Source: a virus. Taken from it: a stretch of 13,115 nucleotides of DNA. The position numbers and the translations under genes were made by a program. Positions 1,055 through 13,115 of the stretch are shown here, piece by piece. Position 1 is the stretch's first letter. Every line of letters begins with the position of its first letter. The stretch lies in UHGV virus genome UHGV-0040766. One strand, 5' to 3'. Under the pieces are notes generated by a model. It searched no databases. It saw only the letters and a list, made by a program, of their open reading frames with translations, and was not told the origin of the DNA.

Positions 1055-1086
1055 CTCTTCATCCTCACTTCGTTTATATAACGTCT

Positions 1087-1099
1087 AAACATGTTGTTT
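1087..1099. promoter_or_regulatory. palindrome AAACA-TGT-TGTTT, copy 3
   Basis: 34 bp upstream of ATG of gene 836-1054; followed by a segment (1100-1135) homologous to 3868-3900. Confidence 0.45.
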
Positions 1100-1436
1100 A
1101 CTTATTGGTGTTATTGTCGCAATAAGACAAAGGCGAAAAAGGATTTTATGTCGTGAAAGCCAGGCTGGGCAGTGAATATCCGGGAACGACACGGGAACCA
1201 GTATTTACGATATTCTGCTCTACGCGCGCCGCAGGGCTGGTGGGCAGAATTTTCTTCTCCCCGAAAACCTACTGAAATCGCTTGAGACCCGAGGATGGTC
1301 TGGCAGAATGGAGTTCAGCAGCTGCACGAGAGGGAACGACACTCCCTCGCGATTTTCAGGCGAGCGAAGAGCAAGGCGCACTCCCGAAGATTTCCCGCAC
1401 TGCTCCCGCAGTCGTCCCTCGCTCTGTACCGGGATG

Positions 1437-1575
1437 TACCCGTTTCCCGACCGGCAGCCAGCCTTTTCCCGGTTCGTATAGCGGGATTCCCACCGTTTCC
1501 CTGAAAAACCTCCAGCCTTTTCCCTGCGGCGACGTTCCCGTTCCTGAAAAGGGACATGGCTTTTCCCTGGATGGC
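1437..1575. repeat. direct repeats built on TTTCCC(G/T)G motifs (about 6 copies, roughly 55-bp super-unit) in a GC-rich non-coding tract
   Basis: CCGTTTCCC and CAGCCTTTTCCC each occur twice, alternating, plus related GTTCCCGTTCC and GGCTTTTCCCTGG; only low-complexity overlapping ORFs. Confidence 0.5.
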
Positions 1576-1764
1576 TCGAAGGCTGACCGAAGGGGTGGAT
1601 AGGGACGTTACGGGGGATGAAAACTATGGCTTGAATTTATACGAAGAAAGTGGCGATACCCCTCCTTCCCTTCCCACTTATACCTCCCACGAATTTTCTC
1701 TCTTATGTGGGCATAAACCTTCTCTCTGATAACGCTCAATACGGCGACTATTCCTGTGGGTGAA

Positions 1765-1885
1765 ATGGGTGGTTTGTTCTTTCTACCGGCATATGTGGTT
1801 TCGTTCTTCTTGAGGTGGTTCTTCTCTGTGTTTTCGTCAGGGTTGTTCTCGTTGTTTTGGTGATTGTTCTTCTCTGTGTATGGAG
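1765..1885 (+). repeat. degenerate tandem repeats of about 19-26 bp (GGTT(T/C)GTTCTTCT-like) at the start of a G+T-rich, A-poor tract (about 1740-2450)
   Basis: five successive units starting near 1768, 1795, 1815, 1840, 1860; a sampled 60-nt stretch (1801-1860) has 2 A residues on the plus strand. Confidence 0.45.
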
Positions 1886-2642
1886 TAATGGCAGGTGGGC
1901 GATTCCTTTCGTTATTGTATTTGAGTTGTTTGTCTTGAGAGCGTGAAAGGCTTTTGTGGTTATTTGTGTATTGAGTAATGGCGTTTCCCCGCGAATGTTC
2001 TGTTTCGTGTCTTTGGGGATTGAGGGAGTCCTTGCGGTAACAGGCTTCGTTAGAGTTTCAGTGGTTCTGGTGTTTATTCGCTGTTTGGGGAATGGCGTGT
2101 AGTGGGTATCGCATGTATGAATGTTTCGAGTTGCCTGTGAAAGTTAGGTTGGTTGTCCGGTAGCCTGGGAAGAAGAGGTGGGTCTTTTCAGTAGCCTGCC
2201 ATAAAGAGGTTGGTTGTTTTTGGGAATGTGGGTAATGGCGTCTCTGGGTTTCCTGTGGGTGTGGTTAGCTTGTTTTCTTGTGTCTGAAAACAACTTGTTT
2301 AGATGTCCAATATAACGCAACGGGAGCGCTTCTGAGCGTGTCTGTTTTTGGGTGGTATCACGAGTCGTTTTTGACGTTTTGGTCGCAGGGAGATGGATTC
2401 TGGTACGCTGGATTTGGGTATAAGAGATGGCGTGCGAAAACATCAACTTTTTAGACCAAATCAGGGGAAAGCGTTGACTTTACGTTGATGTGTTATTTAT
2501 TTGTTTTCTTATGGGTGTAATTGGCTTAAATGCCTTGTCACGCCTGGGATTGAGTGGGGTAGGGTGGTGGGGAAAGTGGCGATCAACGGACTCTTATAGA
2601 AATCCTCAATTTGTGACCGCCAATATCAACGAGCTGCAGCCG

Positions 2643-3212
2643 TTAGTTGTTCAGATAGGCATCCGGAACGCGCACATAAAAGTTTCTTTCGCCGGTCAGT
2701 TCCAGAGTAACGTTTATGTCGTTGCCGTTATCCAGCGTAGCCGTCGCTTTATAGAACTTGTCCGTCACCTTGTCCTGAATTGTCACCTTCATACATTTCG
2801 GCGCTGTGGTTCCGTTATTCTCTTTCAGAATGGTCGTTACGAGAGGACAAGCCGCTTCTTCAAGAGCAACCTCTTCCTGGTGTGGGATACCGATGAAGAT
2901 GTTACCAGCAAGCAACGCGACGATTACGATAAAAGGAAGTCGACTGCCTTTTGTAACGGTGGCACGTTTCCAGAGATAGACCGGAAGGAGAAATACTCCC
3001 CACAGGATGGCCGGTGGTTCATACCCTGCATCAGACAATGCCATTCTGTCAGCCACCAGAAAGCCGAGTCCAGCGACTCCACCTATCACTATTGCATAAT
3101 TCAAATACTCATCTGGCGGTGCTCCAAAGAAGAGAGGCAGTAAAGCTAGAAGCCACGCATAAGCATTATTCAGAGGTTTTGTTTGTTGGTTCTGGGTTTC
3201 CATCACATCCAT
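2643..3212 (-). CDS. hypothetical integral membrane protein (about 4 TM segments plus about 80-aa C-terminal soluble domain)
   Basis: ORF track 2643..3212; four hydrophobic stretches (AWLLALLPLFF, YAIVIGGVAGLGFLVA, AILWGVFLLPVYLW, LPFIVIVALLAGNIFIG); overlapping plus-strand ORF 2490..3143 judged spurious. Confidence 0.65.
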   Translation of the reverse strand: MDVMETQNQQTKPLNNAYAWLLALLPLFFGAPPDEYLNYAIVIGGVAGLGFLVADRMALSDAGYEPPAILWGVFLLPVYLWKRATVTKGSRLPFIVIVALLAGNIFIGIPHQEEVALEEAACPLVTTILKENNGTTAPKCMKVTIQDKVTDKFYKATATLDNGNDINVTLELTGERNFYVRVPDAYLNN

Positions 3213-7676: not shown

Positions 7677-7901
7677 TTATTCACTTTATTCACAGGCCCG
7701 ATCCAATATTTAGATCCCCAGAGAGATCCTACAGAAGATCAAAAGAGATCCCCGATCGTCTCCAGCGCTTGCGGTTACTGGCTTGAGAAGGGGTTACTAT
7801 CCACTATAGGGAGCAAAATAACCACTGTAGAGAGCATAATAACCGCTATGAAGAGCAAAACAACCTCTCTGGAGAGTAGTCGGTATCCACTGTAGTGAGT
7901 A
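7677..7901 (+). other. replication origin module 1 (P1 oriR / RepFIB type): two tandem DnaA boxes, six GATC sites, five iterons
   Basis: TTATTCACT at 7677-7685 and TTATTCACA at 7686-7694; GATC at 7700, 7713, 7725, 7737, 7747, 7754; five roughly 21-bp-spaced iterons 7797-7901 (e.g. ATAACCACTGTAGAGAGCA). Confidence 0.7.
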
Positions 7902-8060
7902 GGAGACAATGTTTTAACTGGATAACTCCGAGCCTGTTTTTCTGCGGCAGATGGCTGATATTCTTGGAAATATTGTAAATTTTGCGTTGCGGCGTGTTTA
8001 TTTCGATCACACATTATCCCCAGAAGGGGAGTGATGCCTGATTTTGTAATTATCTGATTT

Positions 8061-8305
8061 TTATACACAGGCCCGATCCAGTAATTCAGATCCCTGTTAG
8101 AACCAAAGAGAACCACAAAGACCCAAAGAGATCCCCGGCCCTTGCAAACCGTTGTGCCACATGGCTTTAGAGGTTATCGATATCCACTATAGTGAGAAGA
8201 ACAACCACTATAGAGAGTAAATCAACCACTATGGAGAGTAGAAAAACCGCTGTAGGCGGTAGGATAACCACTGTGATGGGTGCTACTATCCACTGTAATC
8301 AGTAA
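8061..8305 (+). other. replication origin/control module 2, immediately upstream of repA: one DnaA box, three GATC sites, six iterons
   Basis: TTATACACA at 8061-8069; GATC at 8075, 8089, 8130, with AGAACC/AGACCC variants where module 1 has AGATCC; six iterons 8180-8304. Confidence 0.7.
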
Positions 8306-8342: not shown

Positions 8343-9398
8343 ATGAGCGTAAACGACAATAAAAACATTGCGATAAGCGAAGCATTTTCCGAAACAGACA
8401 AAAAGACCGGCGAAGTTGTTACGTTAGTTCCTAACACCAACAACACAGTTCAGCCTGTTGCTCTGATGCGTCTTGGTCTCTTCGTTCCGACGCTGAAATC
8501 GACATCCAGGGGTAGAAAGGGGCAAATGGTCTCTATGGACGCCTCCGCTGAACTCAAACAGCTGTCTCTGGCCAAAGCCGAAGGGTACGAGGATATAAGG
8601 ATTGCTGGTCTTCGTCTTGATATGGATAACGATTTCAAAACATGGGTGGGCATCATCCACGCGTTCGCCAAGCACAAGGTTGTTGGTGACACCGTCACGT
8701 TGCCGTTCGTCGAGTTCGTCAGACTTTGTGGCATACCAACAGCCAGATCGTCCGCGAAGTTACGTAAGCGCCTGGACAGCTCTCTAAGTCGTATCGCCAC
8801 AAACACCATCTCATTCCGCAGCAAAGGCTCTGAAGAGTATTACGTTACGCACCTTGTGCAGACGGCAAAGTACAGTACCAAGAATGACACGGTCGAACTG
8901 AAGGCCGATCCTAAGATTTTCGAACTTTACCAGTTCGACAAAAAGGTGCTTTTGCAACTTCGGGCCATCAACGAACTCTCCAGAAAGGAATCCGCGCAGG
9001 CGCTCTACACCTTCATTGAAAGTTTGCCACCAGACCCGGCGCCAATCTCATTGGCTCGCTTACGCGCCAGACTTAACTTAACCAGCCGCACCATTACCCA
9101 GAATGCGACAGTCAGGAAGGCGATGGAGCAGCTGCGAGAGATCGGCTATCTCGATTACACTGAAGTGAAACGCGGCAGCTCGGTCTACTTCGTCATCCAC
9201 TATAGACGGCCGAAGTTACGTTCGGCACTGCCGCCATCTATGGCTACGCCTGAAGAGCCAGAAGATATCTTGCCAGGTGATGATCCGGAGGACATTATCG
9301 ATGTTGCCCCTGAAGAAAAAGACGGGGAAATGGTCATGTTGAGCAAGGAAGAACTGGCGATTCTCGAAGAGCTGCGCAAGGCAAAGGCTCGCAAATAG
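8343..9398 (+). CDS. repA: iteron-binding replication initiator, RepFIB / P1 RepA family (351 aa)
   Basis: translation closely matches my recollection of F-plasmid RepFIB initiator (e.g. [69 protein letters not shown]); flanked by iteron arrays. Confidence 0.9.
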
Positions 9399-11539: not shown

Positions 11540-11545
11540 AGTCAA
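11540..11545 (-). promoter_or_regulatory. -35 hexamer TTGACT at the right end of the IS110-family element (half of a circle-junction promoter)
   Basis: TTGACT lies 14 nt from the element end; joined to the left end this gives TTGACT, 17-bp spacer, AATAAT. Confidence 0.45.
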
Positions 11546-12618
11546 GCTGTTATCGGGATACTGTTGATCCGCCTGTTTTGATTGCGCAGTAACGTGTAAA
11601 CTTCGCGGGAGATATATCGCTTTAGACAGCGTATCGCTTCCATTTTTGTATGTCCTTCGGCTACACGCCTGGCGACATATTCCTTTGTTTTTGCGTCAGT
11701 TCGTAAGCGTCCGATGGCGATGATGTGAAGTGCACTATTTGCAGCACGATCTCCACCACGATTAAGTCGGTAACGGTTCGTTTTTCCAGAAGAAACGGGG
11801 ACCGGGCTGACACCACACAGTGCCGCAAATCCTGATTCTGATCTTAACCGTTGAGGATTGTCTCCGGCAGTGATCAGCAACTGTGAAGCGCTTTCGTATC
11901 CGATAGCATTACGTTTAATCAGCTCAGGTGCCAACTCGTCGACAATTGCCGCAATCATGACATCCAGATCAGCGATTTCGTCATGTAACTCGAGATAGCG
12001 TCGGGCAAGGGACTTTAATGAAATGCGATAAACGTTGGTTACATTGCGGTATTCACTGGCATCAGGTCTCCAGGAACCCAGGGTCCTGATGAGCTGCATG
12101 CGCGTCATATTTCTGAGCTGTTCACGTAATTCATCCGGGGCAGAGATAATATTTGAATGGATAATCTGGAGAGCGACTCTGCGGGCTGATATTGCTGTTT
12201 TTCGGCAAGTTTTTAATACCCGCAGGGACTCAATCATGCCATCACGCGTTTTGGGAGTAACTGTCCTGATGCCTGAGAATGCTGCATGAGCGGCACATTC
12301 AGCATCAATTGTGTCACTTTTACCCCGTTTGCGTCGCTCCATCCGGTCTGGAGCAGTCACCTCAAGAACCTCTAACCCGGCGTTCTGAAAATAACGAAGC
12401 AAACCGGAACCATAGGTACCTGTGCACTCAACACCAATTCGCTTTAATGTCCCAAACGAGGTCATCCATGCCAGCATCTGCCGGTAACCTTGTCGTGTTG
12501 TGGAGAAATACTGAGTCCCAAGGACTTTATTGTTCTGATCTACGACAGCGGCAACGTGCAAATCTTTATGTGTATCCACGCCACCCACAACGGCAGCTTT
12601 GGTAACTTTATCAACCAT
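11542..12618 (-). CDS. IS110-family DEDD transposase / recombinase (358 aa)
   Basis: N-terminal VGGVDTHKDLHV, ECTGTYGSG and TDTIDAECAAHAA motifs (DEDD/RuvC-like) plus C-terminal FAALCGVSPVPVSSGK segment; AGGAG 8 nt upstream of ATG at 12616-12618. Confidence 0.9.
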   Translation of the reverse strand: MVDKVTKAAVVGGVDTHKDLHVAAVVDQNNKVLGTQYFSTTRQGYRQMLAWMTSFGTLKRIGVECTGTYGSGLLRYFQNAGLEVLEVTAPDRMERRKRGKSDTIDAECAAHAAFSGIRTVTPKTRDGMIESLRVLKTCRKTAISARRVALQIIHSNIISAPDELREQLRNMTRMQLIRTLGSWRPDASEYRNVTNVYRISLKSLARRYLELHDEIADLDVMIAAIVDELAPELIKRNAIGYESASQLLITAGDNPQRLRSESGFAALCGVSPVPVSSGKTNRYRLNRGGDRAANSALHIIAIGRLRTDAKTKEYVARRVAEGHTKMEAIRCLKRYISREVYTLLRNQNRRINSIPITA

Positions 12619-12890
12619 GACAGAGCTCCTGTGAGGAAACAGAGTTGAATCTCCAGACAGATAACCCGGACAGGACAGTAACGAGACAAGCCGTCAGGCC
12701 CTTCTTGAGTCACGCGCATCGGTGAGGAGATGCCTCGCATGAAGGCGCTTCCGGCAACCGACGGGTCCAGGGCAGGACACAAAAGGTCGATCGCTGTGTG
12801 AGTCAGGATGCGGGAAGGTCTTCACTGCATCAGTAATCACACCAATCTGGTTAAACGGCAAACTAAGTGGTGGTAAAGACTGACATCGGC
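12619..12890 (-). ncRNA. candidate bridge RNA (guide ncRNA) encoded in the 5' non-coding arm of the IS110-family element; exact ends unknown
   Basis: arm contains CACAGCGATC (identical to reconstructed target across the crossover) and CTGCCCTG (reverse complement of right target flank) 13 nt apart; also AGAAGGGC matching the element's right end; no plausible ORF. Confidence 0.5.
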
Positions 12891-12896
12891 ATTATT
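12891..12896 (-). promoter_or_regulatory. -10 hexamer AATAAT at the left end of the IS110-family element (other half of the circle-junction promoter)
   Basis: element begins AGTAATAATGCC on the minus strand; in the integrated state no good -35 lies upstream. Confidence 0.45.
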
Positions 12897-12899
12897 ACT

Positions 12900-13097
12900 A
12901 TCGCTGTGGAACATCACCCCGCCGGGCTTACCACGGGTTTCCCATGCCATTTCCAGCGATTTCATGGTGAGCCTGCTGTCCGGCGAGAACGACATGGCCC
13001 AGCCCACTGGTTTTCTTGCGAACAGGTCGAGAACAACGGCGAGGTACGCCCAGCGCTTACCCGTCCAGAGTAGAGTAAGAGGCAGGGCGTAGTCGGA
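12900..13097 (-). pseudogene. IS3-family orfB, internal fragment proximal to the nested insertion, with an in-frame stop upstream
   Basis: minus-strand SDYALPLTLLWTGKRWAYLAVVLDLFARKPVGWAMSFSPDSRLTMKSLEMAWETRGKPGGVMFHSD; in-frame TAG at 13098-13100. Confidence 0.7.
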
Positions 13098-13115
13098 CTA
13101 TTTCCCTGCCTCTCC

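Follow-up and report, generated by a model that had tools for sequence, protein, structure and literature searches.

The 13,115-nucleotide viral stretch UHGV-0040766 (one strand, 5' to 3'; hereafter the window, meaning this DNA at its full length) carries at 1140-2640 a non-coding tract that, as a syntenic element of the phage backbone, is a hallmark of SSU5/pHCM2-type phage-plasmids. No other conserved non-coding region of these elements is as large, and none of the records examined annotates the tract. Its role is probably the control of transcription (possibly of replication) between two operons of the phage. Our tentative preference, to which we assign a probability of roughly 35%, is for a composite control region in which a transcription barrier is combined with a regulator-binding platform, the two together insulating an immunity-proximal early operon. 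This reading accounts for the position of the tract, the missing intrinsic terminator, the composition of the RNA, expression data from a lysogen, motifs shared with other sites, and the operator modules on its flanks. A sequence-only reading of the same DNA had delimited the tract as 1140-2480; the tract proves to be real, its conserved element runs farther, to about 2640, and the segment 1147-1400 is lineage-variable, being replaced in the SSU5 clade by a small plus-strand gene. The combination and scale of elements within it are unusual, with resemblances to terminators of the Rho utilization (rut) type, to iteron arrays with a partner, and to looping operator sets. The parts referred to below are as follows.

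836-1054 and 2643-3212, minus strand: the genes neighboring the tract on either side.
1081..1130, minus strand: P_left, a canonical promoter-operator module with palindrome AAACATGTTGTTT at 1087-1099, marking the left tract boundary.
1255..1309, plus strand: P+, a predicted sigma70-like promoter directed rightward, against the phage genes, with -35 TTGAGA at 1282-1287.
1330-1348, plus strand: hairpin GAGGGA-N7-TCCCTC, followed by TTTT at 1353-1356, about 15-40 nt after the presumed P+ start.
1435..1575, plus strand: five copies of CCAGCC(K)TTTCCC(K)G (CCAGCCKTTTCCC 13-mers) in one orientation, forming an iteron-like array, with TTTCCC starting at 1443, 1465, 1496, 1519 and 1562.
1600..1745: conserved blocks GGGGGATGAAAAC..TTGAAT, polypyrimidine CCCCTCCTTCCCTTCCCAC at 1659-1683, and GATAACGCTC.ATACGGCGAC at 1728-1747.
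1745..2330: tract of unequal strand composition, with G+T at about 70% on the plus strand and A+C at about 70% on the minus (gene-sense) strand.
1796-1879: 24-nt tandem repeats (Tandem Repeats Finder: period 24, 2.6 copies at 1817-1879; looser copies back to about 1796).
1885, 1975, 2089 and 2232: four copies of the TKGRGTAATGGCR motif (GTAATGGC-type).
2124-2217: three 31-bp units, two of them with GTAGCCTG-N-AAGAGGTKGGT.
2288..2314, minus strand: P_mid, a degenerate copy of the promoter-operator module, with palindrome AAACAACTTGTTT at 2288-2300 and a candidate -10 TATATT at 2309-2314.
2416..2535: the most conserved block, which includes GGGTATAAGA and the inverted repeat AAAACATCAAC / GTTGATGTGTT at 2437-2447 and 2484-2494 and a tandem GTTGAC site.
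2576..2640, minus strand: invariant inverted repeat or hairpin directly 3' of the stop codon of the upstream gene, with an outer 9-bp stem, 2577-2585 / 2614-2622.
SSU5 95,030-95,560, between SSU5_117 and SSU5_118: a second non-coding gap, of 517 bp, holding the partner array.

Conservation and non-coding status of the tract

From 1100 to 2600 the window is 100% identical to the E. coli plasmid pXJW9B263-1, and the stretch is matched by megablast in 458 plasmids, with further matches to Salmonella phage SSU5 and other SSU5-like phage-plasmids, including Cyrano, PhiR41_1 and Klebsiella phages. A more sensitive search located the core (1400-2640) in 857 PLSDB records, distributed mainly among Klebsiella (447), Escherichia (224), Enterobacter (91) and Salmonella (49), with 828 of the 857 classed as non-mobilizable. 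In every relative fetched, an unannotated gap of about 1.4-2.0 kb with a conserved core of about 1.2 kb occupies the same place, and location and orientation of the tract are identical in all of them; in SSU5, where nearly all genes lie on one strand (corresponding to the minus strand of the window), it is found at 90.4-92.2 kb. The gene upstream of the tract differs between lineages, and the tract itself is kept across plasmid replicons IncFIB, rep_cluster_488 and rep_cluster_763. The sequence-only reading had proposed a cis-acting site that should be conserved in related replicons; that conservation is very strong, and a conserved cis-acting non-coding region is supported. The literature searched contained no description of the tract.

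Its non-coding character, also anticipated, is borne out by several lines of evidence. Open reading frames (ORFs) in the tract are short and lineage-specific only, the longest frames shifting in both place and frame among eight lineages, and the long open frames occur because stop codons are rare in DNA of such composition. Substitutions show no codon-phase bias (eight lineages; chi-square p 0.42-0.93), of 154 gap runs only 21 have a length divisible by three (133 do not), a period-3 signal is restricted to the 24-nt tandem repeat, and the translated ORFs of the tract gave no credible Pfam or PHROG match. A protein-coding gene or recent pseudogene is ruled out by the ORF comparison, the codon-phase and indel tests, and the Pfam and PHROG scans, and the same tests dispose of the decayed coding sequence that had been named as one finding able to refute the original proposal. 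A small hydrophobic plus-strand peptide or type I toxin (for example at 2226-2315) was likewise rejected, neither its start nor its frame being kept and only 7 aa remaining in two lineages.

A long structured RNA, another suggestion of the sequence-only reading, does not hold up: Rfam gave no match at the gathering threshold and a permissive scan only one chance-level match (E=2.8), fold z-scores against shuffles over both strands were 0.28, 1.02, -1.05 and 0.00, and sliding-window alifold consensus energies were a negligible -0.8 to -11 kcal/mol per 120 nt. Further candidates were rejected on more specific grounds. Runs of (ARN)>=4 and AANAANAA counts equal those of Markov simulations in all eight lineages, which removes a sponge of the Hfq/CrcZ type. 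The 14 minus-strand GGA triplets at 1343-1564, considered as a CsrA sponge of the CsrB/RsmZ type, are better explained by the helically phased DNA repeats, of which they are the reverse complement, and folding of this GGA-rich strand produced no stable hairpin scaffold. A minus-strand G-quadruplex at 1660-1690 has its four G-tracts in the window lineage only, as read by eye from the alignment. An invertible or mobile segment bounded by the 19-nt inverted repeat 1081-1099 / 2288-2306 was rejected, the arms being two copies of the operator palindrome and the orientation of the tract being fixed.

Conservation is strong in particular blocks. Those at 2291-2350, 2416-2520 and 2576-2640 diverge by 0.12-0.25 where four-fold degenerate (4-fold) sites of the neighboring gene diverge by 0.43-0.61; conserved blocks evolve two to four times more slowly than neighboring 4-fold sites; for 2416-2535 the value is 0.12-0.22 against 0.43-0.61 at adjacent 4-fold sites. 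This last block also includes a ydfZ-type 5' leader relic (2436-2480), an AT-rich stretch, a third degenerate copy of the promoter-operator module (2499-2535), and one of the two least stable 40-mers of the tract. The relic is paralogous to the 5' leader of the plasmid ydfZ gene, which suggests that the tract derives in part from a duplicated divergent promoter region; the phage-plasmid ydfZ copy itself (PF14001; 4284-4585) is among the few plus-strand genes in the window. The tract is in addition mosaic between lineages, with breakpoints inside it, and for the cassettes 2351-2415 and 2521-2575 the alleles are unrelated. Natural deletions were found in two variants, one with the core wholly exchanged for an IS3-family element and the other lacking 1857-2640; the tract is dispensable for plasmid maintenance and carriage, since such variants exist.

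Composition, transcription and phased arrays

The extreme strand bias first noted by eye is confirmed, with GC skew of +0.39 to +0.48 and AT skew down to -0.59 over 1750-2400. In the homologous 600-nt windows of SSU5, the gene-strand G+T fraction of 0.32 is the genome minimum, compared with 0.494 +/- 0.028. All relatives share one skew profile, with composition kept even where sequence diverges, including poorly conserved spacer sequence, and AT skew falls monotonically from left to right, away from the TTTCCC array, in all lineages. Within the G/T tract (1750-2300) there are 19 near-matching 20-mer pairs, where 0.9 would be expected. Five tandem units had been claimed for 1765-1885; a tandem repeat is present there, for which five is a generous count. 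The recurring motifs reported beyond it are confirmed as the GTAATGGC-type copies listed above, which are all in one orientation within the tract, are conserved (four to six copies), and are not helically phased in their spacing.

Read in the gene-sense direction, RNA of this region has the composition expected of a Rho substrate. Across 2564-1862 the sense RNA has a C/G ratio of 1.6-3.1 in each of ten successive 78-nt windows (about 780 nt), where the background has a median of 1.0 and a 95th percentile of 2.1; seven of the ten lie at or above the 95th percentile for the window. Its minimum free energy of -83.9 kcal/mol over 611 nt (-0.14 kcal/mol per nt, z -1.05) corresponds to almost no structure, and the sense strand following the 2576-2640 hairpin is C-rich and G-poor. 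All 9 pairs of that hairpin (2577-2622) are invariant and it is therefore uninformative on covariation either way. The tract thus presents the features of a rut-type site, namely an untranslated RNA with more C than G and little structure, at least about 80 nt long and lying 3' of a stop codon; RNA that is untranslated, C-rich, G-poor and unstructured is an ideal substrate for Rho loading. A terminator scan of the window found no sense-strand intrinsic terminator between 3400 and 827. At the downstream end of the C/A tract, the conserved blocks at 1600-1745, each unique in the genome, form on the minus strand a G-rich hairpin region in which a weak conserved hairpin is predicted (E -9.2), and at the equivalent site Cyrano-type plasmids have a clear gene-sense intrinsic terminator.

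Expression data are available for a relative about 74% identical, under lysogeny only, and cover the gene-sense strand of the tract. In RNA sequencing of the LF82 lysogen of Cyrano, CYRAN_102, directly upstream of the tract, reached a log2 value of up to about 9.2, and CYRAN_103, which is an ORF called on that strand within the tract, stayed at a floor of 2.3-4.3 in all five conditions (PMC9928086). Antisense transcripts are reported in that study, and the overlapping hokC and sokC are counted separately (PMC9928086), for which reasons the counting appears to be strand-aware. Gene-sense transcription in this lysogen drops to the floor just past the point equivalent to the 2576-2640 hairpin.

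The TTTCCC array is another element of the tract. Its presence is confirmed, with 15 repeat pairs at k=8 in 1400-1640 against 1.1 expected (order-1 Markov, z 9.6). Its organization had been described as a super-period of roughly 55 bp and is better represented by spacings of 22/31/22/44 bp, which give a register of about 22 bp and align every copy on the same helical face. Helical phasing is strong (R 0.69-0.96 at 10.4-10.8 bp), with P of 0.000-0.019 in seven of eight lineages and 0.34 in the eighth, which has only three array copies; the register is kept across lineages, including distant ones in which 4-fold sites are near saturation. A partner array, comprising a pair of the motif 22 bp apart in the same orientation, occurs 3-4 kb downstream in every lineage examined. 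In SSU5 it consists of GCCGTTTCCC sites at 22-bp spacing in the gap between SSU5_117 and SSU5_118, which also has other repeats, including five copies of GACGTG and three of GCGCGTTTT; this gap may be a functional twin of the tract, or may itself be the true origin or centromere. The GTAGCCTG-AAGAGGTGGGT 31-bp unit of the tract is found again upstream of the HigA-like repressor gene SSU5_116. Together, the array and the shared motifs point to recognition at the level of DNA rather than of RNA.

Predicted promoters and operators complete the picture. P_left, with a TG-extended -10 of GACAAT on the minus strand (plus-strand 1113-1118), is kept as a module in all lineages, and is predicted to drive the 72-aa gene at 1054-836. 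Its palindrome belongs to a dispersed family, AAACAAnTTGTTT, with about 20 copies in SSU5, every one located between genes, 15-35 nt ahead of a start codon, and following a GATAAT/TATTAT -10 and 'aacaccaacaaga'; the window has eight copies (218, 709, 1087, 2288, 3855, 3906, 4284 and 4600). We read AAACAAnTTGTTT with its -10, from sequence, as a dispersed promoter-operator module, the palindrome looking, by analogy with the scattered P1 C1 operators, like the operator of a master repressor; its distribution would then constitute a ready-made map of the phage repressor regulon. Two annotated "repressors" lie near the tract, the FljA-like SSU5_121 (Pfam Flag1_repress, E 3e-81) and the HigA-like helix-turn-helix protein SSU5_116. 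FljA is a known RNA-binding translational repressor, which makes SSU5_121 notable, as the dispersed palindrome lies in 5' leaders. In P_mid the palindrome, TTGCGTT and the TATA-like hexamer are kept in most lineages at non-canonical spacing; if active, this candidate promoter would fire leftward into the C/A-rich tract.

P+ combines its -35 with a 16-bp spacer, a TG-extended -10 CAGAAT at 1304-1309 and a conserved upstream block, TTCTTCTCCCCGAAAACCTACTGAAAT. It was found by a consensus scan in the window, and in relatives it scores 8/12, just below the scanner threshold. Its hexamers (-35 TTGAGA/TTGTGA, -10 CAGAAT/CACAAT) are kept, with the spacer variable, in 23 distinct sequences from three divergent lineages. 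The inverted repeat GAGGGA-N7-TCCCTC, which was correctly identified at the outset, is with its U-run likely an early terminator or attenuator, judging by its sequence; in the Klebsiella-type lineage a different hairpin with U-run, GCCGTCCCCGCGGC ATTTTGT, stands at the equivalent place, so that two of three lineages have such a structure within about 40-95 nt of P+. Given a hairpin and U-run so soon after the start, the P+ product may be a short RNA.

A proposed transcription barrier weighed against other roles

In the composite control region that we favor, transcripts of the upstream operon would lose their ribosomes at 2643, form the conserved hairpin 2622-2577, and then pass into an untranslated stretch of 0.6-0.8 kb whose RNA is about 70% A+C, C-rich and G-poor, and nearly unstructured. 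As an untranslated, rut-like RNA, this would cause gene-sense transcription to be halted, presumably by Rho, before the next early operon at 1054, making the tract a one-way barrier. The five phased 13-bp sites at its downstream end and the partner array past the early operon, 3-4 kb away, would, with the 31-bp units shared with the promoter region of the HigA-like repressor, bind phage regulators, and possible DNA looping between them could keep the early operon shut in the prophage. P+, facing into the array, would probably yield a short, lineage-specific RNA.

Several considerations weigh against this reading. A Rho terminator needs only about 80-100 nt, leaving 600-800 nt with four to six GTAATGGC motifs unexplained, and in LF82 transcription already falls at the right edge, ahead of most of the C/A tract, so that the long tract may be unnecessary for termination. 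The RNA sequencing comes from a relative of about 74% identity in lysogeny only, with the opposite strand unreported. The neighboring genes encode no recognizable domains, and no candidate binding protein was found among them. A phased set of direct repeats with a partner array far off is no less characteristic of a replication origin, and the monotonic decay of AT skew resembles a mutational gradient of single-strand exposure more than it does a designed terminator.

These last points lead directly to the main rival, an origin for the phage mode (lytic or secondary replication), which we regard as unlikely. Here an initiator would act on the phased iterons, with the distant array comparable to P4 crr or P1 incA; transcription from P+ would activate the origin, and the plus strand, displaced as single-stranded DNA, would drift toward G+T through C-to-T and A-to-G deamination. 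Such a view is consistent with iteron-like 13-mers in a register of about 22 bp and a second array elsewhere (the usual repeat signature, at least three direct repeats of about 13-22 bp at helical spacing, is present), with a promoter pointing into the array, and with the strongest skew of the genome, decaying in AT away from the array in all lineages. It would also suit a phage that encodes a DnaB-like helicase, primase, polymerase, SSB, ligase and RNase H, as annotated in SSU5, with a lytic origin annotated nowhere, and a tract that belongs to the phage backbone independently of plasmid replicon type and is dispensable for plasmid carriage; an AT-rich segment of low stability with an IHF-like site is available at 2442-2530. 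Against it, domain searches of the flanking proteins gave no Rep or other recognizable domain, and the adjacent initiator gene that would accompany an iteron origin was not found. Nor does the tract have the DnaA boxes and GATC cluster of the true plasmid origin at 7686-8255: no exact DnaA box occurs in it, the best being one match with a single mismatch, TTACCCACA at 2227; it has only one GATC; and the AT-rich 2491-2530 is its sole partial match to an unwinding element. A rule-based R-loop of the QmRLFS type, which calls for a G-cluster initiation zone followed by at least 100 nt with at least 40% G on the non-template strand, was rejected, the 100-nt G content peaking at 39% (median 31%) and initiation-zone G-clusters occurring only at 2546-2572. 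Transcripts from P+ would meet the hairpin and U-run almost at once, rightward synthesis would run head-on into nearly all phage genes, and genome-wide 4-fold-site skew has no break at the tract, although this measure is uninformative as to origin location. The earlier proposal of an iteron origin is supported in respect of the iteron-like array and unsupported in respect of a link to the RepA origin, whose iterons are unrelated and which the distribution over three replicon types does not support. That the repeats mark a different class of DNA site (for instance a centromere for partition, a pac/cos packaging region or a hot spot of recombination), with the skew a by-product of G/T motifs, is very improbable. 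Three direct-repeat families at roughly whole helical turns (22, 24 and 31 bp), repeats above compositional expectation, and lineage mosaicism with breakpoints inside the tract would all suit such a site; yet its deletion variants persist as plasmids, the skew extends into poorly conserved spacer, GTAATGGC spacing is unphased, and the relevant genes are distant, terminase genes of SSU5 lying about 12 kb off (terS/terL at 0.1-2 kb) and ParA-like and ParB-like genes about 8-60 kb off (30.5 kb and 99.8-101 kb), so that neither par nor terminase genes adjoin the tract. For the partition or transfer site of the sequence-only reading, which is not supported, the absence of adjacent par and relaxase genes is compounded by the non-mobilizable nature of the plasmids.

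The remaining rivals concern RNA products, or deny function altogether. The C/A-rich minus-strand RNA of the sequence-only reading may be made during lytic growth, given the promoter-like module with its operator at 2288-2314, although the same strand is silent in a relative's lysogen. An unstructured C/A-rich long non-coding RNA of about 650 nt, made in the lytic phase from P_mid (about 2305) to the G-rich hairpin or terminator (about 1645) and acting in trans as a decoy or sponge for an RNA-binding factor of host or phage (e.g. Rho), or for complementary RNAs via four to six GCCAUUAC motifs, seems to us distinctly unlikely. An operator palindrome and TATA-like hexamer at its 5' end, kept across lineages, a sense-strand terminator at its 3' end in Cyrano-type plasmids, the single orientation of the motif copies, and composition kept where sequence diverges speak for it, and silence in lysogeny would fit operator repression; but the -10 and spacing of P_mid are non-canonical beside some 20 canonical modules, (ARN)n and AANAANAA Hfq-type motifs are not above composition, and an untranslated C-rich RNA would itself meet early Rho termination. 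On the opposite strand, a long G/U-rich antisense RNA running from P+ (about 1316) to about 2350 and silencing sense transcription by pairing or collision would be Rho-resistant, being C-poor (plus-strand RNA of the tract is only about 13% C). Conservation of P+, a weak plus-strand terminator-like site at 2326-2350, and the SSU5-clade plus-strand gene at the position of P+ and in the same direction could be cited for it, although with a hairpin and U-run directly after P+, and a 2326-2339 hairpin that is not kept in other lineages, we hold it to be highly improbable. It is also improbable that the tract is mostly a non-functional relic, assembled from duplicated promoter modules and a lost ydfZ-like gene by tandem expansion and local mutational bias. 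Two degenerate promoter-module copies and the ydfZ leader relic do lie inside it, cassettes at 2351-2415 and 2521-2575 are unrelated alleles, and natural deletions occur; on the other hand, a length of 1.2-1.5 kb is kept in all lineages of a compact phage genome, the tract is present in 857 records compared with 534 for the adjoining 72-aa gene region (with queries of 1241 nt for the core and 300 nt for the gene region), its conserved blocks evolve two to four times more slowly than neighboring 4-fold sites, and both iteron register and skew profile are held across lineages in which such sites are nearly saturated. A more speculative proposal, quite unlikely in our estimation, views the tract as a one-way valve, a composition-based element of about 0.7 kb whose very long, unstructured C/A-rich RNA is a trap or decoy for Rho and whose opposite strand is Rho-proof, or else as a strand-displacement origin without an initiator, serving the replisome encoded by the phage; in the valve form, decoy RNA from an operator-controlled promoter may capture Rho or another host factor during lytic growth.

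Genomic surroundings and known systems

The origin serving the plasmid mode is a separate entity, 5-6 kb from the tract and unrelated to it.

7686-8255: oriR, with DnaA boxes at 7686 and 8061 and six GATC within 7700-7757 (six in 55 bp).
7801-7876 and 8184-8255: two sets of 21-bp oriR iterons, upstream of RepA.
8343-9398: RepA, of the Rep_3 family, adjoining oriR.

GATC sites are absent over 601-2581 (1,980 bp), compared with about one per 220 bp in the rest of the window, and the depleted segment takes in DNA of ordinary composition to the left of the skewed tract. Chi sites (GCTGGTGG) are found at 820, 1236, 10097 and 11118 on the plus strand and at 874 and 3315 on the minus strand; they are strongly over-represented, with six in the 13-kb window against about 0.4 expected and 31 in SSU5 against about 3 expected. 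The copy at 1236, kept in several lineages, is the only one inside the tract, and a Chi-site cluster there was rejected. Gene order among carriers is variable: RepA is about 6 kb from the tract in the window and about 30 kb in SSU5, and the closest plasmid hit (NZ_CP067400.1, compared from about 5400 of the window onward) has IS26, IS1 and IS3 insertions and a dha operon nearby. Such variation fits a conserved phage backbone joined to a rearranging plasmid part. An IS110-family transposase (DEDD_Tnp_IS110 and Transposase_20 domains; 11542-12618, minus strand) has non-coding DNA upstream of it at 12619-13115; non-coding DNA in this position relative to IS110-type genes can encode a bridge or guide RNA.

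In clinical Klebsiella, E. coli, Enterobacter and Salmonella (S. Typhi among the last), phage-plasmids of the SSU5/pHCM2 type are common, some of them with resistance genes; control of their lysogeny and lytic replication is essentially unstudied. Should the tract be a transcription gate, a regulator platform or a lytic origin, it would offer a handle on the switch between plasmid and phage life, and an identified role would also help in curing or inducing these elements and in locating the start of the phage replisome.

Comparison with established systems reveals partial likeness to several. Control regions of the strand-displacement or R-loop kind, including the ColE1 RNA II origin, T4 oriF/oriG and the mitochondrial control region, similarly have a promoter firing into non-coding DNA with a G/T-rich non-template strand and a skew that declines with distance, as expected from exposure of single-stranded DNA; the tract differs in that its G content is below usual R-loop thresholds, its main part is without G-clusters, and a hairpin with U-run follows the promoter. 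P1 incC/incA, P4 ori/crr and R6K share with it an arrangement of three to five repeats, all in one orientation and on one helical face with a register of about 22 bp, as well as a smaller second array with the same motif and orientation kilobases away, while differing in their adjacent Rep or initiator gene, DnaA boxes and GATC cluster, and in that the motif of the tract is unrelated to the iterons of its own RepA. Rho terminators and rut sites, as in lambda tR1 and the nin region, present the same untranslated, C-rich, G-poor and unstructured RNA after a stop codon, placed between same-direction early operons without an intrinsic terminator, to which may be added the transcript drop in the lysogen of a relative. 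The tract is, however, some 8-10 times the normal length of a rut site and has conserved motifs and repeat arrays, an antitermination partner of the N/nut type was not identified, and the role of Rho here is predicted from sequence. Finally, lambda OL-OR and 186 FL/FR resemble it in having regulator-type motifs, shared with an immunity-proximal region, that bracket an early operon; the motifs of the tract are direct repeats and not dyads, and any looping between them is purely our inference. The genome-wide palindrome that accompanies the -10 elements, in the tract and well beyond it, recalls the dispersed operators of P1 C1.

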